A stretch of DNA of 64,000 nt from Nemertoderma westbladi (Eukaryota; Animalia; Xenacoelomorpha), in the NCBI GenBank assembly GCA_032718475.1, contig JAUCBJ010008544.1, forward strand, positions 1 through 64,000, in the 5' to 3' direction. Every line of letters begins with the position of its first letter. The stretch's first letter is position 1. The translations under genes and the position numbers were made by a program. Of the stretch, positions 1 through 57,359 are shown one piece after another. The notes below the pieces were generated by a model, which was given only the letters and a program-made list of their open reading frames with translations, had not been told where the DNA came from and did not search any database.

Positions 1-211
1 CAAATCAAGGTTCATTACATGGATATTATTTAAACCATTAGAAGAATAGTATTTCAAACATTAGAAGGAGTTACTATTTGAAGCGAAAATAATTAGGAGA
101 AAATTCAAAAATGAAATATATAAATAAAATTAGAATGGTTTAGTCAAATATGTTAGTTATTGCTAAATAATTACTAGGTTACTTAAGGTAGGCTGTTCAC
201 TTATATTTCAG

Positions 212-25542: not shown

Positions 25543-28452
25543 CTACGGTGCCCCTTCTAGCAGGCAGCACTTTCCTACAGCCCTCCTGTAGGTCTTCCTA
25601 TCTTTCGCTCCTATCTTACCACCTATCCGCACTTCCACCGATTGGACTCTTCCGTCCTCGTCGGAGTAAGTGTCCACTACTCTTGCCAATCTCCATTGAT
25701 TGTTAATGATGGTGTCGTCCGTGACGATCACCAAATCACCCTTCTTTAACTCCCCAGTGGTATTTCTCCCCTTGCTCCTCCTATGAAGTGTGGGTAGATA
25801 TTCCTCGACCCACCTCCTCCAGTATTCCGCGCTTATCGCCTTAGCGACTTTCCAACTCTGTCGGGAGTGTATATCGTCTGGATCTACACCCCGCATGTCG
25901 ATGGTCGCCAGCCTCTCCATTAGAAAGTGACTGGGTGTCAGCACATCTAATGACTCTGGGTCATCATTTTCTGGGTATAGCGGTCTGCTATTAATGATAC
26001 CCTCGCATTTAGCTATCACCGTCCTTAGCACATCTTCTGTCACCATGTGGGTGTTCATCAACTTCGTCATCAGATGCTTGGAACTACCCACGAGTGTCTT
26101 GACGCATCCTAAAGTATGCGGAGCATACGGCGTCCTCCTCTCCCACTTCACCTGTCGTCTTCTCATGGCCTGACTTCTCATGCCCTGACTTCCTCCCCTT
26201 CCAGGATGTCCAAGGCCTCTGCCAGCTCGTTCTCCGCCCCCACAAAGTTGGTTCCATTATCGGAGTATATTACTGCGATCGTCCCACCTTTGCGGTCTCT
26301 GAACCTCTCTAGGATGAACGCATTGATGAATGCCGATGCGGTTGCGTCTTGGGCGAGTTCTATTCCTACCGCCCACGTGTTGTTACATACGAAGATAATG
26401 CCGTAGCGCTTCTCCGTGTGCCGCATCACCTTAATCTTTATCGGCCCGAACATATCTACACCGCAGTGCGTGAATGGCGGGTCGTGCTGTCTCACCCTGC
26501 TGGCCGGTAATGGCGCCATCTCCTGTACGGCCCGCTCCTTCCTCGTCCGTCGGCAGGTCTGGCACTGCCCCACTACCGCCTTCACCTTCTTTCTTAGTTG
26601 TGTGATCCAGAAGGTCCTCCGTATCTCTGTGAGGGTCCGGTTGGTGCCCCCGTGCAATATCGACTTGTGGGAGTCCCAAATGATCTGGTGGACTATCGGC
26701 GATCTATTTGGGATGATGATGGGTTTCGGTGGAATAATGAGGCTGTTGTTATTTAGCACTCTGGAGTTCATTACTAAGATCCCATCGTCGTTGAGTTGTA
26801 GCGACAGCGTGATGAGCTCGCTGTCCCGACGAAGATGTTGTTGTTTACCAACGCGCTGCATTTCGTCGCCGTAGTTCTTTCTCTGTTCGTAACGGATCAC
26901 GGGCTTGGCCGCTCCCTCCAGATCGATGTTTGGTTTCTTCTTGGTGTCTTTGCCGACTCCCTTGAGGAAACCCCCAAAGGCTCTCCAGTACGCCACTAAC
27001 TTCTTGGTCTTGTACCAACTTGAGCTGTAGCTGAGGAGTTTGTCCGTCGGGTTATCACATGGTTCTTCTGGTTTTTGTTGCACGTCCCTGATCTCCCTCA
27101 CCATCTGACTATATATCTCTTCACCTTCTGAGTCTCCTCCCTCTTCCTCTAGTGTTACCTCCTCTGAGCCTGGGTCCACCTTCTTCATCGGTGGCCAGGC
27201 CGTCTTATCGTTCAGGAACTGTGGCCCGTGCTGCCACAATACTTCCTTCCTTAAGAAAGTGTGGCGTGCCACGCCCCTTGATAACAAGTCCGCTGGGTTC
27301 TCGTCCGTTGGGCAGTAGTGCCACCTCTCCAAGTCTGTCGTCGCCCTTATTTCGTCCACCCTATTTGCGACGAATATAGGGTATCTCGTCTTCTCATTGT
27401 GTAGCCAACCAAGCACTACCATGGAGTCCGTCCAGTAGTGTGTTTCCACTATGTTGGGAATGGTGTCCATCAAGTAGGTTATGGCCCTTACTCCTAACCT
27501 CCCAGCTGTCAACTCGAGTTTTGGGACCGATGCTGAATCTTCCGGTGTCGACTTTGCTTTGCTGAATGCAAGTCTGGGCTTATGAGCCCCCTCTTGTTGT
27601 ACTAGGTAGAGTGCCGCTCCGTATGCTTCTAATGATGCATCGGAGAACATGTGTAGATCCAGAACCGTCATGTCCCCATACGGGAAATACACGCGTGGCA
27701 TGCTGTACATCCCCATCTGTTCTAAACTCCCCGTCCACTTACTCCACTGCTTGCTGATTTCTTCCGGGACCTCTGTATCCCACTCGTCCTTTAACTTATA
27801 TACTTTCTTAAGTATCTGTTTCCCCGTAACTAATAGTGGGGATGCTGGCCTAGGGGATCGTATATCCTTGCTATGTACGATACATAGCCCCTCTTTGTGT
27901 GGATGTCCGCGCCCTCCTGGCTCAGCTGGTACTTGAACTCGTCTGTCTCTCGGTTCCACACGATACCCAACGCCTTCTGCTGGGACTCTACTCTCTTGTT
28001 CGCCATGTCCTGTCCCTTGGCTGTCGTGGGATTATCCATGGTTGACTCTGGCCTCCTGTCCTCTATGGCTCTCATAAACTCTTCCGAGCTGGACTGGAAC
28101 TTGGTCAGGTTAAACCCGGATCCTTTCAGGATGTCGCGAACCTCGCACCCTGTATCCAGTAGTTCTTTAACCGTGTTTCCAGACTCCATCCCGTCATCTA
28201 CATAGAAGCCGCGTCGAATCATATCGACGGGTTTGGCGCTGTATCTCTCCTCTTTCCCCTCTACTGTGTCCCTCACAGCCACAGTCATCGTAAATGAGGA
28301 CGACTTGGCCCCCATATTCTGCACCACCATCTTGTACATCGGTATTGTCGACGGTTCCTCGTCGCTGTTGTACCATAGGAAGCGCTGGCTGTCACTATCC
28401 TCCTCCATTACACGGACTTGGTTGAACATGCCTTCAATGTCGCAAGTGAAGG
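25543..28452 (-). pseudogene. Element A pol, C-terminal part (RT C-half, RNase H, integrase); disrupted
   Basis: FYVDDG, FSDASLEAYG, YWTDS, NPADLLSRG, H..H...C..C, GVDMFGP, YSDNGTNFVG, INSRPL...LTPSHFL, WRRWVEEYL; split by a frameshift (~27900) and a stop/frameshift (~26180). Confidence 0.9.
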
Positions 28453-28590
28453 TGATGAATTATTTCACTATAAGGTAGCATTTGTAGTTTAACTTTAACG
28501 TAAAAACTTTTGAAAATCCGACGTATTTTGATTAAGTTACAGTAATGTAATATGCCTATTCATATTTGTACACATAAAACCCTTAGGTAC

Positions 28591-28665
28591 TCTCGTGGCG
28601 TAGTGGTCAGATGGTTAAGGCGTTGGTTACATTACGTAGGTTACGAGTTCGAATCCCAGTCGGGA
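28591..28665 (+). ncRNA. tRNA-like Pol III unit inside the 5' LTR of element B
   Basis: A-box-like TGGCGTAGTGG (28596-28606), B box GAGTTCGAATCCC (28645-28657), terminal pairing tctcg/cggga, TTTT at 28674-28677; the anticodon arm is not canonical. Confidence 0.55.
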
Positions 28666-28711
28666 AATTTGTATTTTGGGGCCATTTATTTTCGTGTGTT
28701 GCTAATTGGTA

Positions 28712-28985
28712 GGCCAATGAGAAGCGTACAGCGTAGCGAATGATGAGCCAGGCCAATCATAGGGCATAAATTATCTTATTGCTCAAATGTGAGGCAGTGG
28801 AAAATTCTGTTAGGATTCCATGTCCCAGATTAGTGTAAGGGCTGGACTGCGTTGAACGATGAGCTGGGCCAATCATAGAGCACCGAAGCACTTCATTGCT
28901 CAATGGTGAAGCTGTGGAAAATTCTGTTTAGTTTCCATGTGCAATTTCTAGTATAAAAGGCCGGTTTGCCTTCGGTTATCACACT
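28712..28985 (+). promoter_or_regulatory. Pol II promoter of the element B LTR: three CCAAT boxes (two in a ~116-bp duplicated module) and TATAAAA
   Basis: gccaatgag (~28713), gccaatcatagggca (~28752), gccaatcatagagca (~28868), tataaaagg (~28953). Confidence 0.6.
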
Positions 28986-31634
28986 CTCTGTTATCATCCT
29001 GATATCGTTTATTCTTGTAAAATTAGTTAATTCGGTTTCTTGTTGAAACTTTATTTGATAAATCCTTTTGTAAAACTGTAAATATACTGCAATTTCCTGA
29101 CATGTTTTCTTTTGGTCCGACTTCGGGACAGCCGAACACCAGGGAGATGGCAGCCTAGATCGTTAGGCCGTAAGCAACGCAGGGAAGGGATGTCCACAAC
29201 ACGCTAGCGCCCACATTGGATCGACCGCGCACCCCCTTTGCCCCTTCGAAATGCTCAACTTGCTATGCAGCGCCCGCTTTGTGAGAAGGTAAGACTTTGT
29301 TCGACGCCCTTGCCCGCCGTAAGACCTATAGATCAGGGTAAGCGTGACACCGTACTGGACGCCGCAAATTTAGGATCAAATAATTATATCCAGACACCCC
29401 CCCCCCCCTTTGTCAGTCCTACGAATCCCTGGGTTAACCTGTACTTCCTACAGGTGCGAACTATTGCCATTCGTCAGTACGCGAGTACATATTAGGTACG
29501 GACAGCATACGTTCCATAATTTAGTGATTCATAGCACTGACTGTTTGGTACCGGTTCGCTTTGTAGAACGTACATTAGTACCCCCCCCCCCCCTGTCTGG
29601 AGTTAGCTATTTGATCAGGCAAGGAGCATTTCTGCTACCGGCACACTGCTTGGCCTAGGGAGGTTTATTAATATCCTACCGCGCCTTGCCACGTACTGAT
29701 AGGTATTGCTGCTAACTACCGCAGCAACAAAGTTCTAGAATTAAATTAGTATACCAGATCAGCTAACGTACGGTAGCGATTAACCCCTATTCTTATCTTA
29801 CAACCAGAATCTGGTATTAGTGCCGATCACGGGTGTAGTTACTAACACTGTGGTTGCCCATTGGGTTGTGGATAGGAAGGAGAGAGCTTTGACGTCATTC
29901 GTGAGTATAAAGTTCTACAAACGCGACTAGTTTATTTTAGTAGCTAGCGCACGGTATCATTTAGTCAGAAAATCACTAAAACCTAGTAAAAGGAATTACA
30001 CGAAATTGTTTTATTTGTAACACACCCACACACACACGCCCTAAAACATATCGCCCTTAAAGTTCTACTAGCTATAGCGTACTATACATTACTTTAGGTG
30101 GAAATTATCTGTATTTGTAAAATTAGGATCTGATTTAGTTGCGGCAAGATAAGGAGTATTTCACTTTCGTTATTAAACTGTTGTTTGTCTGGACAACGGT
30201 ATTGTTACATTTAGGCCTGACCTTTTAGACTGATTTCGTACAGGGGGATCAGTTATTGTTACATTTAGGCACGACCTTTAGGCTGATTTCGACAGGGATG
30301 ATCAGCATTGTTACACTAGGTCTGTTAACCACCTAGTTCGTATATAACCCATATAAATCACACCGCGGCAAGTTACTGTATTTAGGACTGTCAGTGATAG
30401 TTAGGATTCGCTGCGCGGGGATTGTTTTCCCGTGAGTTTGGTCTGTTACTGTAACTGTACATCTGCCTCACCGGTTAGAGGACAGGTATCCTTCTGTCTA
30501 GTACGTAGGCATTAGACCCGCTCACGTACATAGAATAGATACAAGGCTCTGTTCCTCGCCAGTAGTCGTTTGTGTACTATATCTGTTTGTTTAGATATCC
30601 TGGACTGGGATTTGTTGTCAGATACTGTACAAGCCCGTATACATTACTAGAGTCTCATAGTAAGATACATCGTTACTAGGATCTGGTAAGCGGTATACTA
30701 CTGGACCCTTACAGTAGGAAGTATATTATACAAATTCTGAAATTAGTGTATAGTATAGTTTAGATCTGCTAGCTATTGTAAGTAGGAGATATTTAAAAAT
30801 TTAAGGTTAGTAAATTTAGTAATTTAGAACGTCCCCTGCTTCAGTAGGCTTTTAGGGTAGCTAGTACTTTCGTATTTAATATTTGACTAGCTAACAGTTA
30901 GTTTGTAGCACTTTGTTTTACGCCGTGTGTGTGCGGTGTTACTTTTCGGTACTTGAAAAGGTACATAGGGTTTAAAGACCAATTTGTATCGGTACCTAGG
31001 AAGATTTTTCGTAAGCGTAGAAGTAAAACTCTCACCTTCGACCTTTTCAGGACTCAAGGACTCATTTCTGGACCGCTTCGAGGATTAGACCGCTTTTCGC
31101 AAAGTTTGGGAGACAATAAATTCGTCCGCGCCGCCGAAAAACGGAAAGACCCACGTCCGGTTTGTATTTGGGAATTTGTACGACTGGAAGATCAAAGGAA
31201 CGTAAGTTTTACGACTCGCGTCGTTCAAACTTAAGAAAGCACAGTAGTACTCAAAATTTGTGGGTTTCACTGTCTATTAGTAGTGTTGTTGGTACTTATT
31301 TTCCCGTTAGACGTTGCTGTTTGGCCTATTGTTTATACTTGTTGATCTACATTTTGTTAACGTATATCGTTATCTCACTTATTCGTACAAATTTAGCCGG
31401 TAGGCTAGATTACTACTTATTTTATTATATACCTTGTTAGTTTATTTGTACCGGTTAGGGTATATATATGATATATATATATATCAAGGTAAGTTTGACA
31501 TTTGTACATTTCGACATTTTGACATTTCGACATTCTGACTTGTTGATTTATTTGTACCGGTTAGGTAAGTTTAACACTTCAACATTCAGACACTTTGACA
31601 TTTTATTATCCGTACTTGACGTATATAATAAGAC

Positions 31635-34600
31635 ATGAGTGACATACCCCATTCGACGAGATACCCACCTACCGACTATGACTCGTGCGACCCGGACAGA
31701 TCGACAGTAGACGAACCGAGAAGGAGAACCCGAGATTCCACCGATGTCACACCGCTTGCGTCGCCGGTACCCCGAACGGAAATACCGGAAACCGCAACGC
31801 GTGGCGACGGCAGAATCGAAGATTTCCTTACCGTCCCGCAGACTAGATCGCGGGAACCGGACATGGTAAGTTCGACTGGAAGCCAGGAGAACGTTATTAG
31901 AAGTATAGGAGGACACATGGCCCAGATTACTCGGAACCTCGGAGAAGGTTTTCGCGTTTTACGCGAGTTAACCGCCCCGATGTCGAGATACGAGTTCTAC
32001 ACCTTACAGGTAAGGATAGAAAGTAGGGTACATGCCTCCGTAGATAAACTTAAAGGTTTGCACGAACTTGCAGAGTTGCGTGGCGACAACTTTACTCAGG
32101 TAAAGATAGTAGATAAATTGGTAAGTGCGAGAGAAAGCCTTATCCAGTTTAAGTCGGTGATAAGATTGGCTCAACAGGAGCAGTTTGACCAACTGCTAGG
32201 TGAGTCAGTTTCGGACGCGTTGTTACAACCCGAAGAGGAAGAAGAACTCTACTGCCTGGACGGAAGGTTGGAAACGCTGACCAATTTTCTTCGTAGATGC
32301 GGCGTACCGATCGACGAACCGGAAGTCGAACCACGAGGGACGACGGAAGTTCTCACTACGGAAGGCTCGCGAGCCTACCAACATCCACCACTGGATAGAT
32401 CGTTCGTTAGCGTACGGAGCGACGTTGGCAACGTTGGCGACGTTAGTAGAACAGCGTCTGGAATTACTCGACAACAACAGGAGGTTGCACGCCGACAACA
32501 AGTCGCCGAGGAAGAAGCGCGACACCAGATGGCACAGATCGCCATCGAAGGAGAGAAACAACATAGAGAGGACGAGGCAAGAATTGCACAACTCAAGGCG
32601 CAAGCCGAATTCGAAGCTTCGGAAATGCGCAGACTGGAGGAGGACTTAGCGCGAGAAGCGGCGGCAGCAGCCGACGAGTTAGCACGGAAGAAAGCAGCAT
32701 CCGATGCTCGTGCCAAGTTGGAGGCGCGACAAATAAACGCACGATTAGCTATACAGGAAGCGGAATTAGCGGCACAACAACAAGTAGCGGATCGACGCGA
32801 AAGGGAGATGCAACTACAGTTCGAATTGAATCGTAGATCGCGTGAGACAGCGAACGCGCAAGCGGACCTCGAACTCGACGCGAGAGATAGATCTATAAGA
32901 TCGCGAACTGGACACGACTTGTCTGCCCTGGATCGTATGGAAGCTCGATATCGCGGAATACAGAAGCGGATCGAGGAAGGAAGTGTGGGAGCGATAGATC
33001 GAGGAGAGGAGTTCGTCGAGGATTACTGTAAACGTTTTCCCCAAGTTATTCCTATGCTCAAACCCACGACTCCGATAAAACCGGTCTTCGTTACGAAACC
33101 TAAGGAAATAACGCCTGTGCGTTCGACGCAAGGCAACAGGTTTGTTGTGACGGAATTACCGCAACCTAGGGCGACTTCATCGCCAATTTTAGCAGGTAAC
33201 ATAACTAGTCCACCTACAGTAAGTCGTAGTCTACTTGTAGGAAGAGAGGAACCTGCGTTTATGACCATTAAACAGGTGAGTAAACCATTACAAGTTAAAC
33301 CTGTGACGTGCTGCGCGAACCCAGTCATTTATAAACCTACAGTAGACCTTAACCCTGATGTTTTTACTAGACCTCTCACCCAATGTTTAACGAGACCTAC
33401 GACTTCGTGGAAGGCTTGCGAGCCTGCCGAACAACGGAGAGCCGTAGATCTCAGATCACAACGAACTCGACCAAGGATAATACGCCGGACGCGAACCCGC
33501 CAACCACCTTATCCGGACGACAGCGATTCATCCAGTGACTTGGAGTCGACGGAACGGGAAATATTCCGTACTGGAGCGGCAGCGGCAGCGGATTACAAAC
33601 GGGAGGAACGATCGACGAACCCCTATATTGACAATCCTCCACGAGAAACACCCCAACAGAAACCCACGTTGCAACCAGCGGAAACGATCAGCGCCAAACA
33701 GTTCACCGAGATGACGGACAGAATAGCTCAACTCGAAGAACGACTCGAAGCGCAACCGTCGGATCGATCTCGAACCAGCGTGGAGTTGGAACAACCTAGA
33801 CAACATCGACCACCGAGGAGAGAACAGGAGACTAGACGGACTCCGACACATCGAGAAGATGATCCCGTTAATAATTCCTACCGACGAACAACGCGCGGAA
33901 GGGAGCGACTGGACGACGCCGCCGAACAGGGACGCGGACAGTTGGATTTAGTTAGCGAGATTGCGAAATTCGCGGCTAGACACGGATTACCGGCACAGCA
34001 ACCGCCGAAGTTCTCTGGCAACGCGAAACACTGGCGCACACTGGTAGACTACGTAGAGTCCCAGATCGCTAAGTGTGCTTTCACCTCGACGGAGAAGTTT
34101 AACTACTTGCTCCAAGTTCTGTCTGGTGAGCCGAAACGATTAGCGGAAACCTTTATTGGTGTTCCCGATGCCTTTGAGTTGGCGTACGACCGTTTGTATT
34201 CGATTTACGGCGGTAATGTCGCCATGGCTAAATCCATCATTGAAGACCTCTGCAGAGGAGGCAACATTTCGAGACCGATCGACCTTTTACGACTCGCGGA
34301 CGAAATAAAGAACGCTATAGGGACTTTACGGTCCATTGGACAACTCGAGTACGCTAACGCACCGACGGTTCTCATTCGAATAATCGGTCGACTTCATCAT
34401 CGACTACGACGAGAATGGCGACGCATCGAGTACCAACGCGAAGAGGCCGGAGGGTTATTAAAACTCACCGATGTCTATCAACTTATTTCACGGGAGGCCG
34501 TGATCGAGACTCGATCGAACTATACCGATCACCATATCGCGGCGGAAGGGATAACTGTTTCTGCGCCGAATCGGACAAAACCATTTCCGACGAACGCGAA

Positions 34601-37600
34601 AGCCGTTACTTACGCCACCCCTACTGAGACTTCTAAAGTTCTGACGCCTATCGGCACCACGCAGCCACGACAACAGTTGCCGGCGGACTTTGTGGGATGC
34701 TCATACTGCGAGCGGAACGGCAGAAACCATAGCGGACATAAACTACGTGGATGTCGCGCTTTTAAAGAGTTAGGGATCGAGGAAAGGAGACTCCAAATCC
34801 GATCTCTAGATTCCTGTTGGAGATGTATGAAGCCAGGACACGTCCGGAAGGATTGCCCGAGCGACGATACATGTTCTTTGTGTGGACGTAACCATGACGC
34901 GTTGCTTCACACAACCAGTCATACTCCGACCAGACGCTTTCGACGAGAGCATCCAGATAAAGCGGCTAGATGCGACGCGCTTTATAAGGAGCGTGCGCCG
35001 CGCGAGATCCGTACCTTTTATACCGACTGTATGGATCAGTCAGGATCATCGGACGAGGACGAGGAGGAAGACGACACTTTCTACGTGCATGCAGGTGAGG
35101 AACAGCCATCGATAACGCTCCTCACACAGAACCAATTGAAAGGGTTTAGCGTGATTCCTATAAAGATTACCGGAACCCGAGGGAGCAAGCGTATATACGC
35201 CATCTTAGACTCTGCGTCATCGCATAGCTATGTCGACGAACAAGTAGCCGACGTAGTTACGGACTTGAGTCAAGGTAAGACTGCTCAGTATACTGTAAGC
35301 AGCATGCATGGTAAGAGAGCGATTCCTGTGACGAGAGTAAAACTAACCTTAGACACTCTTCTTTCCAAAGCGGAACACAGCAAGGAGGAGCGCTCATTAC
35401 TTCCGGTAAGAAATTTGACCTTTGCAGCTACGAAGGACTTTAGTAACTTGCTCGGCCCTGTGCCAGAGCAATCACCGGAAGATCGTAAGTATTTCCGACA
35501 CCTTGGAATACCGGAATGTCCTGTCAATTATCGTTCCATTGCGATGTTAATTGGGACAGACCAGTTTAACTTACATCAGGTATGGGAGACACGCCCATCT
35601 GTTATTACAGCAGGCAACCCCTACGCATGTAGAACTCCCATAGGTTGGTATACTAGAGCACCAATACGTTCACTAGAGGTAAGTGACCAGGAGGACGACG
35701 TTTTGAGTACGTGTAGTTTATTGACTAACACGATAGATAATTCTCCTTCACACTCCTGTGGTCCAATTGTACGGACGGCACTACGACAGACTTGCGTCAC
35801 TAACGCGGACGCCACCGATACTGACGTAACCGATCTGGACACGACCATACGGACCTCTGACTTACAACTACTTGCAGTAGACCAGGTTGTATTGACTACT
35901 GAAGACCTGAGGGTTGTTGCTGTGGATGACTCGATGAACGAGGATTTTGGAAGGCTTGCGAGCCTACCGAAAAATCCGAAGGTCATTGACCCCACCCACC
36001 AGGCTTCGACACCGGTCGTTGATCTTGGAAGGCTTGCGAGCCTACCGATAGATCAAGAAGTTGTCAAACCGCCGCACGACAATTCGACGCCGACTAGTGA
36101 CACCGGAAGGCTTGCGAGCCTACCAGACACATTGACACTAGCCACCGCAGCGGACGAAGACGTGGACGAGGACCATGGCGCAGTGCAAGCAGCGTTTGAC
36201 CGACTGCTGACTGAACGGACCATACAATGGTTGGAACAGGACTCAGCAGAACCCGGTAGTTACGAGACCGCTATGTCAGAACAGGAAAAACGGTCATTAA
36301 ATATTATGAGAGATACCATTCGCCAGACTGCGAATGGCCACTATGAGGTTGGTATGTTGTGGCGCGATGGACAACCTAAGCTCGTTAACAATTACCCGCT
36401 TGCTTTGAGGCGACTCAAATCAATAAGGCAGCGATTGTTGCGAGACGAGACGGCCCATATGCAATACAACGCACAACTTCAGACGTATCTCCAAAAGGGA
36501 TACGCCATTAGGATGTTAAATCCTGAGGTAACTACAGACCAGACATATTACCTGCCACATCATTTTGTTCGACACCCGGACAAACCTGGCAAGGTGCGTG
36601 TAGTCAACGACTGCGCTGCGCTTTACCAAGGGATGTCTATGAACAGCGAACTGATGGACGGGCCGAATATGAATAATTACCTCATGGGAGTCCTAATGCG
36701 TTTTAGACAACGCAAAGTGGCTTTCACCTGTGACGTAGAGGCCATGTTTCACCAGGTTAAGGCTTTGGAGCGGGACAGGGACAGTTTGAGGTTTCTTTGG
36801 TATCCGGACGGAAACTTACAACTTCCGCCAGAAACTTACCAAATGCAGGTAAGAGTATTCGGAGCCAGGGACAGCCCCAACTGCACCATGTACGCATTGA
36901 AGCAGACAGCATTGGACAGACGAGACCAATTTGACCCAGAAGTAGTTCGGACCGTGGAACGAGATTTCTACGTGGATGACGGCCTCAAGAGTTGTGACAC
37001 CTTGGAGCGCGCTACAACCGTAGCACACCAACTCCAGGATTGTCTCGCTGAGGGCGGATTTCACCTGACGAAGTTCGCTTCCAACGAACCCGAACTGGTG
37101 AACTCATTTGACCCGACGGATCGTAGCGGAGGTGACTTGGACTTAGACCTAGAACCTCTGCCGACGACCAAAGTATTAGGACTTAGTTGGGACCCTAACA
37201 CCGACAATTTTAGGGTACGTGTAAGGTCCAACGACCAGACTAGACCTCTCACTAAGAGGACTTGCTTATCGACTATGAGTCGATTGTATGACCCATTGTG
37301 TTTCATTAGTCCAGTGATCCTACATGCCAGGATCATACTCCGCAGCATTTGGCAAGCCGGACTGGAATGGGACGATCCCATCCCAGAAAAGTTAGCTGAG
37401 CGATGGAGGGACTGGGAAGCCCAACTGACGTTCCTACAAGACTATACCATACCGAGGGTATACTTTCCTTTACAAACCACCTTTCCTGCCGATTTAGAGC
37501 TTCACAGCTTTAGTGACGCTAGCAAGGATGGATTGGGGGTTACTTTATACCTTAGACGACAAGTGACATCGGACAGCTACGATGTGTCTCTCGTTACTTC

Positions 37601-40400
37601 AAGGGCTAGAACAATGCCATTGAAGTATATGACTGTACCTCGTGGGGAGCTGCAAGCCGGGACGATATCCACCGATATTGTCAGTCTAGTTCAACGCGAG
37701 CTGGAGGCTAACTTGAAGGTCACATATTGGACGGATGCGACGTTGGTACTTTGGTACATAAACAACGAAACATTCGAGTTCAAGACTTTCGTAGCCAACA
37801 GACGGGCTGAAATACTAGACCGGTCGCTCAATCAAGATTGGCGTCACTGTCCAGGGAAGCTGAACCCAGCTGACATCGCGTCACGGGGAATGCAACCACT
37901 TGACTTTTGTAAACCGGACAATAAATCCTTTTGGTTTAGAGGACCCGATTTCCTACAGCGACCATCAGACGAATGGCCACCGTTATTCGACGCGACAACC
38001 AACACCATACCAGAGGGTGCCGAGATAAAACTCGACAAGGTTGTCAAGTCTAAAGCGAAAGCCAACGCCAAGGTCAAAAGGAAAAAAGGACGGACGAAAT
38101 CTGATGACCTGGACGCCAGACCTGACATTACGCCAGACGTCTCGCCAGACACTCGACCAGACGCTTGTACGAATCCTTCGCCGGATGTTCCGCGGGAGAT
38201 TTCACCAGACGTTTCGCCGGATTGTTCACCAGATTACTCGCCAGACTATTCACCAGAAGAGACACCAGATTGTTCTCCGGATTGTTCGCCAGATTGTTTG
38301 ATGGAACTCTCGACAGAATGTCTACCGGACGTCTCACCAGACTGTTCACCAGACATCTCGACAGACTGTCCACCAGACTGTCTACCAGACTTTGAACCAG
38401 ACTTTCTGACAGAAGTTACGCTAGACAGACTTTGGGACCGACGACAGGACATTTCGCCGGATGTTCCGCGCTATGTCTCACCAGACGTCTCACCAGACTG
38501 TTCACCAGACGCTTCACCAGACTGTCTACTAGACACTCCATTAGAAGACCCATTGGAGCGGACATTTAGAGACGTACCAAATTCGACTTCTTTGGACGAC
38601 AGAGATGTGGCCACAGGGATTACACTCCGCTCGAAGAAGGTACTTGACTTACCTACAGGTAAACGTGTGACTAAGGTTAGGAAGCTTACAGGCTCACAGG
38701 AACACACTGACGCTGTAGAGTTGAAACCATTACTGCCAGTCGACACATTAGGTGCGGACGGTAAAGGTAAGACCGTAGAGATTGACGTACTTGGGGACTC
38801 AGACAAACCTACCGGAAGGCCCGTGGGCCTACCAAGTCCAGACAAGTATCCACACTACGACTACACCTTACCCGATGACGTCACTAACACTTACGTTGAC
38901 AGGATAGTGAACCTAACTAGATCATGGACTGACGCGTGCCGCAAGTTAGCATGGCTCAAACGATTGAGACAATATGCCAGAGGCAAACGCGACTTTCCTA
39001 GAAGACTTACCTTAAAGGAAATTGGCCACTGTGAAGTTGATATCATTCGACATTATCAATTGCGATATTTCGCACGAGAGTTCACAGCGATCAAACAAGG
39101 TAAACAGATTAAGTCTTCACCGATTTTGAGTTGGAGTCCGATTATTTACCGGGGCTTACTTTGTCACAAGTCCAGACTCCAAAACATCGACTTTGCACTT
39201 GACTTTAGGTATCCTATCATCATACCGCAACACCATGAGTTACAGCGCGCTATGATACTGGACGCACATGTACAACTCAAACACGTAGGTAGACACCACT
39301 GTCTATCACACTTACGCTCGAGGTTTGTACTGATTAGACCTAGTAAGGCACTGAGTTCAGTAACACGGAACTGTATTATTTGTAAGAAGGTGCACGCGAG
39401 GATAGGACACCAAGAAATGAGTGAACTACCACTAGCAAGATTACAGGCGTTTAGACCCCCTTTCACTGAGACAGGGATAGACTGTTTTGGACCCATAATC
39501 GCGAAACGCGGAAGGGTACAGGTAAAACGTTGGGGATTGATCTTCACTTGCATGGCCAGCAGAGCTGTCCATATAGAGCGAGTGACAGACTTGTCCACCA
39601 ATGCCTTTATCCTAGCCTTACGGCGATTTATCGCTAGACGTGGATTGGTCAAATCCATATACTGCGACCAAGGGACAAACTTTGTGGGTGCACGGAACGA
39701 GATAACCAGAGCTTTGAGAAAATTGGACCAAAACCAGATTTCCGAGGAACTACGTCCTCACCGTATTGTTTGGTTTTTCAATACTCCAGACAGTCCGTGG
39801 AGAGGCGGCGTTTGGGAAAGGCTGATTGGCTCAATAAAGACAGCTATGGCTAAAGTCGTACCGACGCAACACATCTTGACAGACGACCAACTGACGACGT
39901 TACTAATAGAAATCGAAGCAATCTTAAATACCAGACCGATCGCTTTGATCCCAGACAATAACGACGTACAGTTTGCCTTGACACCAGCGCACCTGCTTAT
40001 GCAGGCGCCGACGACACTGTTGCCCATTTCGGTACCCGTTGATAGTGACGGATACGGCAACAAGGCTTGGAAAATCACTCAATTGCTTGCAAATAAATTC
40101 TGGGAAATATGGCAGAAATATTATTTGCCCTCTATTTCGACCAGAACCTCTTGGTATCTAAATACCCGATGTTTAAGACGTGGTGACCATGTTTTATTGG
40201 CTGAAGCTAATCTGAAAAGACGGTTTTGGCTGACTGGAGTCATTTTGACCACGCACCCTACATCTGGTGTAGTGAGGACAGTTACTGTACGGACTATCGA
40301 CGGTCGTACCGTAGACAGACCTGTACAACGTCTCGTACTCCTTGAGGAGACTAGAAACGAGACGGGAGACTACAAATCTCCACCCAATATTAGTAAATAG
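31635..40400 (+). CDS. gag-pol: BEL/Pao Gag-Pol polyprotein (coiled-coil Gag, triple zinc knuckle, aspartic protease, RT, RNase H, integrase), 2921 aa
   Basis: PPKFSGN, CSYC...H...C / CWRCMKPGHVRKDC / CSLCGRNH, AILDSAS, YYLPHH...KVRVVND, FTCDVEAMFHQV, FYVDDG, FSDASKDG, YWTDA, NPADIASRG, GIDCFGP, YCDQGTNFVG, GGVWERLI; uninterrupted. Confidence 0.97.
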   Translation: MSDIPHSTRYPPTDYDSCDPDRSTVDEPRRRTRDSTDVTPLASPVPRTEIPETATRGDGRIEDFLTVPQTRSREPDMVSSTGSQENVIRSIGGHMAQITRNLGEGFRVLRELTAPMSRYEFYTLQVRIESRVHASVDKLKGLHELAELRGDNFTQVKIVDKLVSARESLIQFKSVIRLAQQEQFDQLLGESVSDALLQPEEEEELYCLDGRLETLTNFLRRCGVPIDEPEVEPRGTTEVLTTEGSRAYQHPPLDRSFVSVRSDVGNVGDVSRTASGITRQQQEVARRQQVAEEEARHQMAQIAIEGEKQHREDEARIAQLKAQAEFEASEMRRLEEDLAREAAAAADELARKKAASDARAKLEARQINARLAIQEAELAAQQQVADRREREMQLQFELNRRSRETANAQADLELDARDRSIRSRTGHDLSALDRMEARYRGIQKRIEEGSVGAIDRGEEFVEDYCKRFPQVIPMLKPTTPIKPVFVTKPKEITPVRSTQGNRFVVTELPQPRATSSPILAGNITSPPTVSRSLLVGREEPAFMTIKQVSKPLQVKPVTCCANPVIYKPTVDLNPDVFTRPLTQCLTRPTTSWKACEPAEQRRAVDLRSQRTRPRIIRRTRTRQPPYPDDSDSSSDLESTEREIFRTGAAAAADYKREERSTNPYIDNPPRETPQQKPTLQPAETISAKQFTEMTDRIAQLEERLEAQPSDRSRTSVELEQPRQHRPPRREQETRRTPTHREDDPVNNSYRRTTRGRERLDDAAEQGRGQLDLVSEIAKFAARHGLPAQQPPKFSGNAKHWRTLVDYVESQIAKCAFTSTEKFNYLLQVLSGEPKRLAETFIGVPDAFELAYDRLYSIYGGNVAMAKSIIEDLCRGGNISRPIDLLRLADEIKNAIGTLRSIGQLEYANAPTVLIRIIGRLHHRLRREWRRIEYQREEAGGLLKLTDVYQLISREAVIETRSNYTDHHIAAEGITVSAPNRTKPFPTNAKAVTYATPTETSKVLTPIGTTQPRQQLPADFVGCSYCERNGRNHSGHKLRGCRAFKELGIEERRLQIRSLDSCWRCMKPGHVRKDCPSDDTCSLCGRNHDALLHTTSHTPTRRFRREHPDKAARCDALYKERAPREIRTFYTDCMDQSGSSDEDEEEDDTFYVHAGEEQPSITLLTQNQLKGFSVIPIKITGTRGSKRIYAILDSASSHSYVDEQVADVVTDLSQGKTAQYTVSSMHGKRAIPVTRVKLTLDTLLSKAEHSKEERSLLPVRNLTFAATKDFSNLLGPVPEQSPEDRKYFRHLGIPECPVNYRSIAMLIGTDQFNLHQVWETRPSVITAGNPYACRTPIGWYTRAPIRSLEVSDQEDDVLSTCSLLTNTIDNSPSHSCGPIVRTALRQTCVTNADATDTDVTDLDTTIRTSDLQLLAVDQVVLTTEDLRVVAVDDSMNEDFGRLASLPKNPKVIDPTHQASTPVVDLGRLASLPIDQEVVKPPHDNSTPTSDTGRLASLPDTLTLATAADEDVDEDHGAVQAAFDRLLTERTIQWLEQDSAEPGSYETAMSEQEKRSLNIMRDTIRQTANGHYEVGMLWRDGQPKLVNNYPLALRRLKSIRQRLLRDETAHMQYNAQLQTYLQKGYAIRMLNPEVTTDQTYYLPHHFVRHPDKPGKVRVVNDCAALYQGMSMNSELMDGPNMNNYLMGVLMRFRQRKVAFTCDVEAMFHQVKALERDRDSLRFLWYPDGNLQLPPETYQMQVRVFGARDSPNCTMYALKQTALDRRDQFDPEVVRTVERDFYVDDGLKSCDTLERATTVAHQLQDCLAEGGFHLTKFASNEPELVNSFDPTDRSGGDLDLDLEPLPTTKVLGLSWDPNTDNFRVRVRSNDQTRPLTKRTCLSTMSRLYDPLCFISPVILHARIILRSIWQAGLEWDDPIPEKLAERWRDWEAQLTFLQDYTIPRVYFPLQTTFPADLELHSFSDASKDGLGVTLYLRRQVTSDSYDVSLVTSRARTMPLKYMTVPRGELQAGTISTDIVSLVQRELEANLKVTYWTDATLVLWYINNETFEFKTFVANRRAEILDRSLNQDWRHCPGKLNPADIASRGMQPLDFCKPDNKSFWFRGPDFLQRPSDEWPPLFDATTNTIPEGAEIKLDKVVKSKAKANAKVKRKKGRTKSDDLDARPDITPDVSPDTRPDACTNPSPDVPREISPDVSPDCSPDYSPDYSPEETPDCSPDCSPDCLMELSTECLPDVSPDCSPDISTDCPPDCLPDFEPDFLTEVTLDRLWDRRQDISPDVPRYVSPDVSPDCSPDASPDCLLDTPLEDPLERTFRDVPNSTSLDDRDVATGITLRSKKVLDLPTGKRVTKVRKLTGSQEHTDAVELKPLLPVDTLGADGKGKTVEIDVLGDSDKPTGRPVGLPSPDKYPHYDYTLPDDVTNTYVDRIVNLTRSWTDACRKLAWLKRLRQYARGKRDFPRRLTLKEIGHCEVDIIRHYQLRYFAREFTAIKQGKQIKSSPILSWSPIIYRGLLCHKSRLQNIDFALDFRYPIIIPQHHELQRAMILDAHVQLKHVGRHHCLSHLRSRFVLIRPSKALSSVTRNCIICKKVHARIGHQEMSELPLARLQAFRPPFTETGIDCFGPIIAKRGRVQVKRWGLIFTCMASRAVHIERVTDLSTNAFILALRRFIARRGLVKSIYCDQGTNFVGARNEITRALRKLDQNQISEELRPHRIVWFFNTPDSPWRGGVWERLIGSIKTAMAKVVPTQHILTDDQLTTLLIEIEAILNTRPIALIPDNNDVQFALTPAHLLMQAPTTLLPISVPVDSDGYGNKAWKITQLLANKFWEIWQKYYLPSISTRTSWYLNTRCLRRGDHVLLAEANLKRRFWLTGVILTTHPTSGVVRTVTVRTIDGRTVDRPVQRLVLLEETRNETGDYKSPPNISK

Positions 40401-45707: not shown

Positions 45708-47970
45708 TGATGAATTATTTCACTATAAGGTAGCATTTGTAGTTTAACTTTAACGTAAAAACTTTTGAAAATCCGACGTATTTTGATTAAGTTACAGTAA
45801 TGTAATATGCCTATTCATATTTGTACACATAAAACCCTTAGGTACTCTCGTGGCGTAGTGGTCAGATGGTTAAGGCGTTGGTTACATTACGTAGGTTACG
45901 AGTTCGAATCCCAGTCGGGAAATTTGTATTTTGGGGCCATTTATTTTCGTGTGGTGCTAATTGGTAGGCCAATGAGAAGCGTACAGCGTAGCGAATGATG
46001 AGCCAGGCCAATCATAGGGCATAAATTATCTTATTGCTCAAATGTGAGGCAGTGGAAAATTCTGTTAGGATTCCATGTCCCAGATTAGTGTAAGGGCCGG
46101 ACTGCGTTGAACGATGAGCTGGGCCAATCATAGAGCACGAAGCACTTCATTGCTCAATGGTGAAGCTGTGGAAAATTCTGTTTAGTTTCCATGTGCAATT
46201 TCTAGTATAAAAGGCCGGTTTGCCTTCGGTTATCACCTTCTCTGTTAATCATCCTGATTATCGTTTATTCTTGTAAAATTAGTTAATTCGGTTTCTTGTT
46301 GAAACTTTATTTGATAAATCCTTTTGTAAAACTGTAAATATACTGCAATTTCCTGACATGTTTTCTTTTGGTCCGACTTCGGGACAGCCGAACACCAGGG
46401 AGATGGCAGCCTAGATCGTTAGGCCGTAAGCAACGCAGGGAAGGGATGTCCACAACACGCTAGCGCCCACATTGGATCGACCGCGCACCCCCTTTGCCCC
46501 TTCGAAATGCTCAACTTGCTATGCAGCGCCCGCTTTGTGAGAAGGTAAGACTTTGTTCGACGCCCTTGCCCGCCGTAAGACCTATAGATCAGGGTAAGCG
46601 TGACACCGTACTGGACGCCGCAAATTTAGGATCAAATAATTATATCCAGACACCCCCCCCCCTTTGTCAAGTCCTACGAATCCCTGGGTTAACCTGTACT
46701 TCCTACAGGTGCGAACTATTGCCATTCGTCAGTACGCGAGTACATATTAGGTACGGACAGCATACGTTCCATAATTTAGTGATTCATAGCACTGACTGTT
46801 TGGTACCGGTTCGCTTTGTAGAACGTACATTAGTACCCCCCCCCCCCCCTGTCTGGAGTTAGCTATTTGATCAGGCAAGGAGCATTTCTGCTACCGGCAC
46901 ACTGCTTGGCCTAGGGAGGTTTATTAATATCCTACCGCGCCTTGCCACGTACTGATAGGTATTGCTGCTAACTACCGCAGCAACAAAGTTCTAGAATTAA
47001 ATTAGTATACCAGATCAGCTAACGTACGGTAGCGATTAACCCCTATTCTTATCTTACAACCAGAATCTGGTATTAGTGCCGATCACGGGTGTAGTTACTA
47101 ACACTGTGGTTGCCCATTGGGTTGTGGATAGGAAGGAGAGAGCTTTGACGTCATTCGTGAGTATAAAGTTCTACAAACGCGACTAGTTTATTTTAGTAGC
47201 TAGCGCACGGTATCATTTTAGTCAGAAAATCACTAAAACCTAGTAAAAGGAATTACACGAAATTGTTTTATTTGTAACACACCCACACACACACGCCCTA
47301 AAACATATCGCCCTTAAAGTTCTACTAGCTATAGCGTACTATACATTACTTTAGGTGGAAATTATCTGTATTTGTAAAATTAGGATCTGATTTAGTTGCG
47401 GCAAGATAAGGAGTATTTCACTTTCGTTATTAAACTGTTGTTTGTCTGGACAACGGTATTGTTACATTTAGGCCTGACCTTTTAGACTGATTTCGTACAG
47501 GGGGATCAGTTATTGTTACATTTAGGCACGACCTTTAGGCTGATTTCGACAGGGATGATCAGCATTGTTACACTAGGTCTGTTAACCACCTAGTTCGTAT
47601 ATAACCCATATAAATCACACCGCGGCAAGTTACTGTATTTAGGACTGTCAGTGATAGTTAGGATTCGCTGCGCGGGGATTGTTTTCCCGTGAGTTTGGTC
47701 TGTTACTGTAACTGTACATCTGCCTCACCGGTTAGAGGACAGGTATCCTTCTGTCTAGTACGTAGGCATTAGACCCGCTCACGTACATAGAATAGATACA
47801 AGGCTCTGTTCCTCGCCAGTAGTCGTTTGTGTACTATATCTGTTTGTTTAGATATCCTGGACTGGGATTTGTTGTCAGATACTGTACAAGCCCGTATACA
47901 TTACTAGAGTCTCATAGTAAGATACATCGTTACTAGGATCTGGTAAGCGGTATACTACTGGACCCTTACA
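45708..47970 (+). repeat. 3' LTR of element B (2263 bp)
   Basis: Near-identical to 28453-30713; preceded by a short purine tract ggagcgg. Confidence 0.97.
45846..45920 (+). ncRNA. tRNA-like Pol III unit, second copy (3' LTR of element B)
   Basis: Identical to 28591-28665. Confidence 0.55.
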
Positions 47971-50644
47971 GAAGGCGTGCCTCCCGTTTCTGAATCTGAG
48001 TAGGACCTCGCTCCCTGAGTTGTAGATATTGGGACCCTCTAGCAGATAATCGTTTAGGCATTTGCCATTGGTCTTAGCCGATGCGTCAACTACCATCCGC
48101 AGTTTACCTTTCTTCGGGTCTAGAGCCACGTGAAGTGGTAGGTTATAGGTCCTGTCCGTGTTCAGTTCGTCGACCGGTAACTCCACGGCCCATCCTTTCT
48201 CGACGTACTTCCTTATTGTCTTATGGATGTACTCATCCTTTTCGGGGCTCCGTTTCAGCGTTTGCTTCAGTTTGCGAAGCCTCGTGAGTACCATCCTCTT
48301 GTTGTCAGGCAACGGTATCTTCGGCTGTTTCCATACCATGCCTATGGTGTACCGTCCCTCCTCACATCTCATGGACTCCTTCACACTTTGTATTGCCTGT
48401 TTATCTTCTACCGAGGTTCCGACCCCGGTCTCTTTCAATCCCTCAAAGTCCTGCCAAAGTAGTCTCCTGAGCTGCTCCTCCGCTCCTTCATCTTCCATCT
48501 CCCTCATAGTTCCCGCGAACATGCACCCTGATGTCTCCGACATCCTAAACGGAATCTTGGTCCTGATCGGGCTGCTTAGCGTCCACCCGAATGATGTTAA
48601 AATTGCCACCGGGTCACGCTATCCGTCTTTGCCGAAGACAGTCTGCATTCTCTCGTGGGCCGTCGGGCAGTCCATTCCTACTATAATGGATACCTTCCTA
48701 ACGTCCACCTCTGGTATTGAGAAATCGATACCATCCAGGAATCTATATTGTTCGACTTCGATGTTGGTTGGTCGCCTGGCGTTGATATTTATCGACTCTA
48801 TCACCTGGATGGGGTCGATGGTCGCCCCATAGTCGCATCCCGGTGCTATCGCTGCTATCGCGCACACTATCTACTTGGCCTCGTCTTCAATCCTATCTCT
48901 TCGGCCACCCAATTCTCGACCAATGTGAAGGCTGCTCCACTGTCGACCAGCATTAACGTGGTTACTGATCGATCGCCTTCTCCGATCACCCTCACTGGCA
49001 CTACCCCGAGTAGCACCATTCCTCTCTTCTTCGCCCCTACAGTGCTTGTCGCCATTGTCTGGCCTTTGCCTTGACCAAACTTAACTGGTGTTTCTTTACA
49101 CTCCTCAACCTTGTGTCCCCCTATCACACATCGGTGACAAATTCCATTCTTATCCGCATAGGCTTTCCGGTCCTGTTCGGGTAACGCCTGCCAATGCTTA
49201 CAGTACATGGTCTTATGGGTTCCGTCTTTATATAATTGACATTCATATTCTGGGTTATAGCGTTCCCTATATAACCCTACACTTATTGCGCGTAGGTTTA
49301 CATCTACCGGCTTAGTGTTTTGGTTATTTGGCCTACTGGGTGTGTTGGGGTTATATTTGTTCATGTTGTTATTTTTTCCCCGTTCGTGCCACAGTTTGGC
49401 CCCACTTCCGGCTATCTGTGGACTTGCAGTCCCCTGTGTCGCCGCGTATGGTAGGGCTTGTCTTAATTTTGGAAACGCATTCGCCGCGTTATGCTCTATC
49501 CGTAATATGCTGTAACCGTACGGTTACACCAGTCTTGGGTCTGTCGTCCGGTCCCTGTAAGTGGGGTATCAACAAACGTTTCCATAACTTCTGGCTCCCC
49601 GTAAACACTACCCGAGCCAGCCTCACTCTCTGATAGCCCCAACTGCGCCAGTTCTAGTCGGCGCTTCTGTTTGGCCTGATATTGCATAAGCCCCCTTAGC
49701 CAGGCATGCATATCATCCCACACACGCTTTCCCGTTCTCTCTCTCTCTATCCTCTCGCAAACTCTGGTTCGCTAACTCTGTTTCTCTCGCCACCCGCTCT
49801 CTACGTTCATTTGTTTCTCTCGTTTCTCGCTCTTTGCACTCCTCTTTCTCCCTCTTGTGCTCCTCTTTCTCCCTCTCTTCTCGCTCCTTGCGCTCCTCTT
49901 TCTCCCTCTCTTCTCGCTCCTTGCGCTCCTCTTTCTCCCTCTCTTCTTGCTCCCTACAGTTCCTGGCCACCCTCTCGACTCTCTCTTTACACTCCCTCGC
50001 CAACTCTCTCTCTTTCTCTAGCAACGCAGCTCCCTCTTCCAACTACCTCTCTAACTCTTTCTGGTCTATTTCTAACACCCTTCTTACTTTTGCGGAGGAT
50101 GTAGCGGACTTGTTGGTCGCGACGGACTCCCGTCGCCTCTCTGTCCTACTAACTTTCCCCCGCTTTCTGGGGTCCTCGCTAACCGACGAGACCGAATCCT
50201 CGGGGTTAATCTCGGATTCGCCTTCGTGCGGGTCTGCCCAACCCACTAACTTAATTCCCCTAGCATCCACTAAATACGGCCCTATGTACACAACTTGGGG
50301 CTCCATAATCCCGGATCGCCACAGTTCAAATATTTCGGTGGCGACCCCCCTCGCTCTCTCACTGGCTAGTTCTCCCTGTCCGAAGCGAACTAGGTATGTA
50401 AAATGTTTATTCGACTCACCTAGTCGCCGACTCAACTTCCCTTGGTCTATCTTTACTCCTTCCCTGGCCTCCTTAAGTTGCTTCTTTGTTGCGTTGTAGG
50501 CTCATCGGAGCCGGTCACAGGTTCCGACGTCCTCGTCGCCGACCTCTCCTCCTCCCCTCCTGGTTCGGCGTCGTACCGGCGGCCCCACCTTCGCCGTTCC
50601 GGTGGGCCGTCCGTCGCCCTCGGCCTGTGGCTGGCCGGCGACAT
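47971..50644 (-). pseudogene. Element A gag, protease and RT N-half; disrupted by several stops/frameshifts
   Basis: E/K/R coiled coil (49713-50042), CQLYKDGTHKTMYC / CHRCVIGGHKVEEC knuckles, MLVDSGAAFT protease, YNLPLH...KLRMVVDAS...LNDYLLEGPN. Confidence 0.85.
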
Positions 50645-52060
50645 CGGTACTACGAGCGCCGTTGTGCATCGACTCCTCCTCCTGTTGTGGTAGACGGCCG
50701 CCCTCCGCTTGGGCTACCGGATCGTTCCTTTCCGGCGAGTCCGGTGTTGCGGGTCGATACCGTCGCGGTGTAAAAGCTTTTGCGGATATAACCAGTCATT
50801 TTTCTCCGTAATGAACTGTTTAGTTGTTTTAGCGGACATAACAAGCCATTTTCTGCCGCAATATGCCTAATACTCTAAAAGACTGGAACTCCGATGACGA
50901 AATCTGTCAGCTGGTTTACTGTACACGTGGAGCCTCTCTTTGTTCAGGCTCGGCCAATCAGAGCGATTTTCATTTAATCTTGCACAGAGGCCTACGGAAA
51001 ACCGCGCAATGCATTACGGTCTTTGTTTACCTTTCTGAGCGAGAACAACTGCTTGGAAATTCTTCTGTACTTCTGTGTTGGAAGTTTCAGACTTTGGCCA
51101 ACATTAGACGGCTTTGATTATAAGAACGTAAATCTATTATCCTGTCAACTTGTCAACTGGCTGACTGCACTGTGCAACTGTGCAACAAACCATAACAACT
51201 GCACCTGGCTGCAACTGCGGTACCGACATACTGACTTTCACCACATTATTTTACTTCTGTTTACTGTCTGTTATTAATGGTTATATGTTGATGGATATGT
51301 TGTTATATTTGGAGAATATCGATAAATAATCATAAAACCCCTATCTTCTTGATTACTGAAGGTAAGAGGGACCTGTTACCAGTAGCAATTGCGACTTACA
51401 TTACAGTGGTTTTAGTGTGCATTAAATGCTATTTCATAATCCCTACATGTGTCAGTTGCTATCCTCCTTATATATGGTTAAATTCAGTGACGGTCGGCAG
51501 ATCAGTGTGCAGCAGTGTGAAGTCGTATGCAGCAGTGTGACAGATAATAAAGCATCTCCTAAGGAATGCGCTATTTACGAAAATCAGTAGCCATCTCGTT
51601 GTGTTTAGTATAAGTCATAACTCTGTTTTATACTTAAAGCGCCACGTCCTAAAGGAACTGTTGATATTTCCCCGAAAGTGAATAATATTGTCAGAGATTA
51701 TAAAGTAACGATCAATCGAATAATACAGTAGGTCTGCAACGCAATAACTTCGAAGCACCCGAATCCAGTCTCCCTTAACTGTGGGTGAATGATCGCGCAT
51801 AGACTGACTTCGGCTAATGTTACTTCATGTGCATTAAATAATTGTTATAGGCTAAAGTCGATTTATAAACAAGAAGACACCTAAAATTGGCAGGTTAAAC
51901 TGCTAAAGGTCTGAAAGCGCGAACACGTGGATCGTTTCGTTCGTATCGTCCGGGGTCCGCGGCGGTGTCGTCTCTCCCTTTAGATTTCGGGCTTCGCTCA
52001 TCCTTTAGTCTTTGATGGTGGCTGGCAGTCACAGCTTTAGCAGTTGTCTGATTTTCGTAC

Positions 52061-52646
52061 TGTGATGGGATCAGGGGATCCCGACCGGTTAGTTTTTGTT
52101 ACGCGTCGCCGCTCGTTGTTATGAGAAAAGGATATTACAGTAGTTAGTTGTTGTTCTGATATTGTTAATGCAAATCACCAAATATAATATAATAGCAAGA
52201 AATATATATGTAATGTTAATGAATAAGATATAATAGCGTTGTACCGGTAGTAGCGGTGACGGTACGAAAATGTCACCTAACTGCACTAATTAATGACTGA
52301 GTAAACTGAACAACCGACCGGTAGCAGGACGATATATATGTATATAAATAGTACACTACTACGACCTTCGTCCAGTGGATACTCTCCCCCCTGCTCTCAT
52401 TGGCTGTTGGCCCACTTCACGCCTCTCACCTCTGTGGGAGTGCTTCCCCCCCGCTGCTGTTACTTTCCCTCTCCCAAGAGGTTTGACCTATTACCCCTTT
52501 TGTGTGGCTCTTTGGGGCCTTATGTTGTGCCCGTTATTGGGGGTGATACGAGGTTGATTGTAATCAACCTCGTACTCCCCAATATTGCTTAAAACGCCAC
52601 TTCCCAACTTTATGGGGTCGGTGGGGCGGAATTGAATCCGCTCACA
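52061..52646 (-). repeat. 5' LTR of element A (586 bp)
   Basis: tgtgatgggatc...gaatccgctcaca; TATA-like tract at ~52332-52350 and Inr-like tcagtt at ~52305-52310 on the minus strand. Confidence 0.95.
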
Positions 52647-57036: not shown

Positions 57037-57359
57037 TTAATTCTTAAATAAAGGAGGACATTCCCCTTTAGAAACATCTAAATCCGCCACTGTAGGTGAT
57101 TGTAATTAATATACAGAATATGTATGTACATATGTACCTATATACACTACCTACCTACATATATATATTTATACAATATACCATGGAAATTTGAATTTCC
57201 CTCTCACTAACACGAAGTTCGTATTATATATTTTTTTATGTTTCATGTCCCCTTAGGGACTCCATTTACTGTATTTCTGCAAAGCTTACCGGTATTTCTA
57301 ATTTAGTCGTCTAATTTAATTTAGTTTAAATTTCATGCGTAACTTTGTAATAATTTCCC

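Follow-up and report, generated by a model that had tools for sequence, protein, structure and literature searches.

How does a retrotransposon start reverse transcription when its primer-binding site (PBS) is not the usual one for a tRNA? Retroviruses and LTR elements are taught to copy an unspliced RNA with the help of a tRNA primer, and self-priming of the Tf1 type is the known exception to this rule. The stretch of DNA analysed here (the window, 64,000 nucleotides in all) holds two nested BEL/Pao LTR retrotransposons, a broken element A and, inserted into it, element B, and TGG is absent at the LTR edge of both. The ICTV profile of the Belpaoviridae lists an 18-nt PBS for the 3' terminus of the host's tRNA-Arg or tRNA-Gly as a trait (PMC8742986), and the absence of such a site therefore marks A and B as a variant. 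The same profile gives LTRs of 0.2-1.2 kb, whereas those of B measure 2.26 kb in an element of 19.5 kb. ARAGORN found no tRNA in the LTR of A or of B.

The nesting and the family of the two elements were read from self-comparison and Pfam. Both share with the Belpaoviridae the order Gag-protease-RT-RNase H-integrase, the Pao Peptidase_A17, DUF1759 and DUF5641 domains, LTRs, a polypurine tract and animal relatives. The Pao-type pol order (protease-RT-RNase H-integrase) was recovered by Pfam in the frame of B and in the separate pieces of A. The LTRs of A are identical at 572 of 581 aligned bases, and the element is flanked by a 5-bp target duplication set within a 36-bp satellite. B lies in the pol of A, also with a 5-bp target duplication, and its LTRs agree at 2254 of 2258 aligned bases. 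Membership of the Tf1/sushi group was rejected for both because the domains are those of BEL/Pao and a chromodomain had no Pfam match. Acidic D-E-D motifs are present in A and B, and we take these to be the RNase H site. The B protein has 212 homologues; all 120 of those listed carry PF05380. The closest of the listed proteins are approximately 35-44% identical, and their named hosts include cnidarians, a ribbon worm, molluscs, sea urchins, tunicates, crustaceans and fish. The integrase was the sole match in a search of solved structures, and no relative was found among the viral contigs searched. The coordinates are collected in Table 1.

Table 1. Features of elements A and B, in positions of the window
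Feature	Positions	Strand	Remarks
Element A 5' LTR	52646->52061	minus	586 nt, TG...CA
Element A 3' LTR	24029->23438	minus	592 nt
Element A polypurine tract	24030..24038	minus	
A pol, 3' part	25543..28459	minus	several frames, broken; RT end, Peptidase_A17, integrase zinc finger, DUF5641
A gag, protease and RT start	47875..50501	minus	in pieces, split by element B
A primer-binding position	52051..52060	minus	non-TGG, zero spacer after LTR
Exact 10-nt complement in A LTR	52262..52271	minus	predicted self-primer core
Local 6-bp hairpin around primer core	52255..52277	minus	predicted to be outcompeted by the PBS duplex wherever the PBS is included
Upstream arm	52279..52299	minus	two further helices lengthening the duplex
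Leader arm	52026..52045	minus	pairs with 52279-52299
U5 stretch	52104..52112	minus	predicted to pair with 52261-52253, the 9 nt that follow the predicted cut on its 3' side
U5 hairpin directly upstream of PBS	52067..52082	minus	z -3.2 in A
TATA-like run and Inr-like A	52301..52350	minus	prediction; last TATATA starts at 52338, Inr-like A at 52307
Element B 5' LTR	28453..30713	plus	2261 nt
Element B 3' LTR	45708..47970	plus	
B gag-pol	31632..40400	plus	unbroken 2922-aa frame; DUF1759, Peptidase_A17, integrase, DUF5641
B primer-binding position	30714..30723	plus	non-TGG
Contiguous 10-nt complement of B PBS	29442..29451	plus	inside the pyrimidine tract of the second AG (29452-29453)
Candidate B LTR intron	29078..29422	plus	predicted; donors 29078 (GT) or 29089 (GC), acceptor ends 29416

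Other content of the window includes a 2651-aa Helitron-like frame with a PIF1 helicase and a C-terminal GIY-YIG domain (167-8122, plus), a sulfotransferase frame (57354-58457, plus) and a separate reverse-transcriptase frame with DUF6451, which lies between copies of a 62-bp repeat (14810-16525, plus).

The PBS of A is complementary to the element's own LTR, as in elements of the Tf1 type. An exact complement of its ten bases occurs only twice in the whole window, at 52271-52262 and in the 3' LTR copy at 23652-23643. Dinucleotide shuffles of the LTR reached a 10-nt match at offset 0 in 2 of 5000 cases and at any offset from 0 to 5 in 6 of 5000. The coordinates given in the original prediction all hold, and its chance estimate of about 0.0006 is near the shuffled value. 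Two further pairing blocks that it described exist as well, but their register is not strictly kept, the loops having 7 versus 5 and 9 versus 8 nt. Pairing was also said to stop at the LTR edge; in fact two more pairs follow beyond the edge after one mismatch. The core contains no AG and has no canonical donor nearby, so A is intron-less at this site. A search of Rfam (E <= 1) for a self-cleaving ribozyme near the primer returned only two miRNA-like hairpins, located elsewhere. Within the A LTR no canonical poly(A) hexamer occurs 3' of the core (52061-52261, minus).

The leader of A has some further features. Two downstream stretches complement the PBS region, one of 12 nt exactly (51576-51587) and one of 17 nt at 88% (51898-51914), the latter matched by 4 of 200 shuffles; both could compete with the primer duplex. 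Very many short contigs from all four runs match part of 51300-51930, unlike the centre of the LTR, which suggests an abundant repeat either inserted in the leader or derived from it.

Relatives were taken from a metagenome scan of a quarter of the collection, as the best 80 of 520 confirmed loci. Terminal repeats were examined in 29 loci, and in 10 of these the LTR end is fixed by both copies; L010 and L054 were left out because their LTR ends are not clean. Nine of the 10 PBSs are non-TGG and all nine pair with their own LTR, eight of them across a junction. The remaining locus, L032, has a TGG site that we take to resemble tRNA-Tyr sites. A contiguous 11-nt complement, as in A, is found in L002. 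In the other eight loci a contiguous match of 6-9 nt starts at a pyrimidine-rich AG. What is left of the PBS is complementary to the bases that precede a GT donor further upstream, and the match totals 10-15 nt when read across the junction. Shuffled PBS regions equalled the junction match in 0-1 of 1000 cases for seven of the eight; L013 scored 10, but 0 under a stricter acceptor filter. When 12 LTRs were crossed with 12 PBSs, 3 of 132 off-diagonal cells reached 10 nt, namely one same-family pair and two from the long LTR of B.

A blind test covered the 66 loci with at least 130 nt of upstream DNA, 14 of the 80 having too little. With the junction search restricted to some donor types, a junction match of at least 10 nt was found for 28 of 66 cognate loci (21 families) against 88 of 4202 non-cognate pairs. 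Contiguous matches of at least 11 nt were rarer (6 of 66 cognate loci, 36 of 4202 non-cognate pairs). A TGG PBS occurred in two loci of one family (L032 and L072). Thirty of the 66 loci fell in no class; among 16 loci read by eye, several were contigs without an LTR or PBS. A conserved tRNA-independent priming mechanism had been proposed for this BEL/Pao lineage from A and B alone. This core claim passes the check that the proposal itself had set, as non-TGG sites and a complement in the element's own LTR extend to relatives, but the proposal missed the main feature, that the complement mostly spans the exon junction of an LTR intron. The GTA and TAC shared by A and B are no conserved signal, for the PBS starts with GTT in 11, GTA in 8, ATT in 4, GTC in 3 and other triplets in 3 of the 29 entries assembled below.

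Some loci deviate in other ways. LTRs end in TA instead of CA in L002 and L021 and in L054/L055. In L028, a distant family, the first 8 nt of the PBS are the same as those of A, 6 nt past the predicted LTR end (L028:278-295), and the PBS has a contiguous 12-nt complement in its own LTR.

The predicted primer cores were compared in 21 spliced families and 8 contiguous entries, the latter including A and B (n=29). There are 27 distinct cores among the 29 entries, and each covaries with the PBS that it matches. Their length ranges from 10 to 15 nt and is 11 in 16 entries. The cores end in AC (23), AT (5) or CT (1), and the next base is C in 19 and G in 6. The introns measure 71-426 nt and exon 2 holds 4-7 nt of the core; in L038 two acceptors fit. 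The donor reads GTAAGT in 14 of 21 families, and its sixth base, which was not imposed by the search, is T in 16 of 21. Beyond a short gap, 15 of the 29 entries have a second helix that is at least 4 bp long, compared with 112 of 812.

One pair of relatives differs by the intron itself. Over 7.1 kb L011 and L012 share 90% identity, and L011 lacks, exactly to the base, a 168-nt GT..AG segment of L012 and keeps a contiguous primer. The intron thus appears genuine. L011 may be a DNA copy or an RNA-derived contig, and in either case the predicted splice sites were used. In the tree, intron-less and intron-bearing forms are sisters twice, with supports of 100/100 and 99/90; the contiguous L026 is sister to the spliced L056 at 99/90. 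A itself sits on a long branch whose place differs, with the spliced L024 in a quick tree (98 SH-aLRT) and outside all loci in a second tree, and the trees therefore lend no support to intron loss in A's own ancestry.

The leader RNA of A was folded from several starts. The start at 52307, which would lie 36 nt before the primer core, is a prediction only. From there the primer:PBS pair probability is 0.95-0.99 for 8 of the 10 pairs and that of the local hairpin 0.01. From 52298 the PBS duplex has a probability of about 0.7 and the hairpin 0.26; for a start at 52271 the prediction is that no duplex forms (0.01). The GGTGAC/GTCACC hairpin in whose loop the primer had originally been placed is present in the A LTR at 52255-52277, but it is predicted to yield to the PBS duplex and is not general. 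The extra pairing arm of A outscores 1975 of 2000 shuffles (25 reach it). For A, pairing of U5 with the bases after the cut is the best among the 29 U5 ends; over the 29 entries a helix on the 3' side of the cut does not reach significance (p 0.09). The U5 hairpin has a z below -1.5 in just 7 of 29 entries. The overall folding energy of the A leader is unremarkable (z -0.83).

Sister copies of A were compared in contigs from three DNA runs of two studies (229, 178 and 5 contigs), with 12 of 69 indel rows and 17 of 78 loose ends listed. Among the variants listed, 52253-52276 has no substitution and 52086-52138 has many. The T run at 52270 is one base shorter in two contigs each of X1 and X3. 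The core shows no listed change that would match the PBS variants at 52051, 52056 and 52057, a point against the proposed pairing. No intron-bearing sister of A appears among the 17 of 78 loose ends listed. A promoter-primer block (52232-52344) is kept in sister copies with differing flanks. The LTR-end hairpin (52057-52090) is common to many other contigs, one of which also has the first four PBS bases.

Element B offers a second case in the window, and its LTRs bear no visible similarity to those of A, as had been stated (best local score between them <=21). Its contiguous 10-nt match is weaker than that of A because the LTR is 2.26 kb long, and shuffles equalled it in 21 of 5000 cases at offset 0 and in 115 of 5000 at offsets 0-5. 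The acceptor ending at 29416 is the most pyrimidine-rich of 17 in the LTR, and it is followed by a 6-nt complement of the PBS start (29417-29422). Splicing from donor 29078 would give a primer of 9 nt (duplex energy -14.1) and from donor 29089 one of 14 nt (-21.3), compared with -17.5 for the contiguous match. The primer of B may thus be spliced rather than taken from 29442-29451. With its two neighbouring acceptors, B may also alternate between an RNA able to prime and one that lacks the primer. A candidate antisense copy of the A junction, in a repeat of the B LTR, was discarded, being equalled by 9 of 200 shuffles.

B has other content of its own. After pol lies an extra 940-aa frame (41074-43896, plus) in which three zinc-knuckle-like CCHC motifs were recognised by eye; it has no Pfam match, is not env-like by Pfam and gave no result in an Atlas look-up. 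In-frame 12-nt tandem repeats at 37950-38550 (plus) separate the Peptidase_A17 region from the integrase region by a long insert of low complexity. A tRNA-like stretch in U3 (28590-28670, plus) has motifs that we take to resemble an A box and a B box; neither ARAGORN nor Rfam made a call there.

The junction-spanning complements in relatives, the L011/L012 pair and the acceptor in B together suggest that A is an intron-less form of a splice-built self-primer. On these sequence comparisons A likely uses its own RNA to prime reverse transcription, and it probably represents the intron-less version of a primer that splicing would assemble in most relatives. The steps between, from transcription start, 5' LTR splicing and fold to cut and priming, we infer as follows. 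Transcription would begin at a point of the 5' LTR that lies upstream of the primer core, at the predicted 52307 in the case of A. In intron-bearing families a cap-proximal LTR intron would be removed, which would bring 4-10 nt from exon 1 together with 4-7 nt from exon 2; in A the primer would be assembled without splicing. The 5' leader would fold onto the PBS, aided by the second helix past a short bulge. The RNA would then be cut just after the core, mostly after AC and before C or G, yielding a 3'-OH; in A the predicted cut falls between 52262 and 52261. Excerpts of PMC7175516 place the cut of Tf1 RNase H between bases 11 and 12, and by analogy the element's own RT/RNase H is taken as the most likely cutter. 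Strong-stop DNA would copy just the part 3' of the cut. Since its position is 5' of the cut, the intron would be passed on through the 3' LTR copy of the RNA as long as that copy is unspliced. Where the 3' LTR copy is spliced too, an intron-less lineage would arise, as in L011, L026 and probably A.

The main rival is a primer provided in trans by short LTR transcripts. What anneals to the PBS of the unspliced genomic RNA would then be a short spliced transcript of the LTR alone, or a small RNA processed from such a transcript; solo LTRs could supply the transcript, as could splicing of the 5' donor to the acceptor of the 3' LTR. Such a primer would fit the same complementarity data and explain how the intron is retained even if no 3' LTR stays unspliced. 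In 17 of the 21 spliced families a poly(A)-like hexamer lies 4-93 nt past the core, which makes a short LTR RNA plausible. We nevertheless consider this improbable: the 3' end would have to fall exactly 4-7 nt inside exon 2, a precision that polyadenylation does not provide, the fold in cis is predicted to be favourable in A, and the Tf1 precedent, in the excerpts available, is a fold of the element's own mRNA.

A strict Tf1 geometry, in which transcription starts at the core, the first 10-12 nt are the primer and extra helices are incidental, is decidedly unlikely. The predominant core length of 11 is that of Tf1, a TATA lies 31 nt before the core in L024, and an Inr-like site coincides with the first base of the core in A and L013. 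These points are opposed by a distance of 58-69 nt between the core and the nearest TATA-like motif upstream of it in A, L040, L070 and L080, by the predicted failure of the A duplex to form from 52271, by the enrichment of the second helix, and by an exon 1 that would be reduced to 4-10 nt. In 21 of the 29 entries no TATA-like motif occurs within 130 nt, and the spacing is not fixed. That a host RNA is the primer (an internal tRNA fragment or other small RNA, with the LTR match due to chance or a by-product of copying) is hardly credible, since 27 different cores each match their own LTR, most of them solely across a splice junction, even though half-tRNA priming exists in Copia lineages according to excerpts of PMC6317226.

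Priming by the element's own, usually spliced, RNA has partial parallels. Self-priming is described for Tf1/sushi, Tcn1 and TAR/Houba/Osr-1 in excerpts of PMC6317226, PMC4600332 and PMC10085805. In Tf1, Tf2 and Tj1, in the Tf1/sushi group (Ty3/gypsy chromoviruses) and in plant Tcn1, the PBS adjoins the 5' LTR, has no tRNA match and has an own-LTR complement of approximately 11 nt, as here (PMC7175516 and PMC4600332, in part). The predicted helix 3' of the cut and the U5 hairpin of A also recall the Tf1 'pretzel' (excerpts of PMC10085805), but these helices do not appear to be general among the 29 entries. Unlike Tf1, the elements described here belong to BEL/Pao, the primer of A is predicted to lie about 36 nt inside the RNA with extra pairing on its 5' side, and the primer of most relatives is split by an intron. 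For TAR/Houba/Osr-1 a self-primer was likewise predicted from a complement of at least 10 nt in the 5' LTR; those are plant Ty1/copia elements, and the excerpts of PMC6317226 describe no intron-split primer. The conserved hairpin site of fungal GalEa resembles the sites of A and B in occupying the expected place without a tRNA PBS. Its partner lies downstream and an LTR complement was not found there, whereas here the partner is in the LTR (PMC5445492, in part). The pattern thus appears to work like Tf1 self-priming, placed within BEL/Pao and usually split by an LTR intron.

A full-text literature search, outside whose reach lie most subscription papers, Repbase Reports and supplements, found no report of self-priming or of a splice-built primer in BEL/Pao. 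Word look-ups in the available text gave nothing on PBS, tRNA or primer in the Sinbad and BEL/Pao survey papers (PMC554778, PMC3118150) or the mollusc survey (PMC6238403), and nothing on PBS or self-priming in PMC2774666. The accessible portions of PMC13524379, PMC3601003, PMC5445492 and PMC11042837 added nothing on BEL/Pao priming.

On balance we favour the view that a wide branch of animal BEL/Pao elements has exchanged the tRNA primer for one made by the spliceosome. Removal of the 5' LTR intron would precede copying while the intron itself is inherited from the unspliced 3' LTR, intron-less forms like A would recur, and B may be a switch. As intron removal would be required before copying and the intron is inherited all the same, splicing would act as a licence for replication. 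If true, a splice-built primer inverts the rule that unspliced RNA is copied with a tRNA primer and ties mobility to host splicing. It may also put these elements beyond the reach of tRNA-fragment defences. Such a primer would also account for the failure to be expected of PBS finders on these elements. The pattern provides a simple rule of annotation in a family of which the ICTV says that replication is poorly understood.
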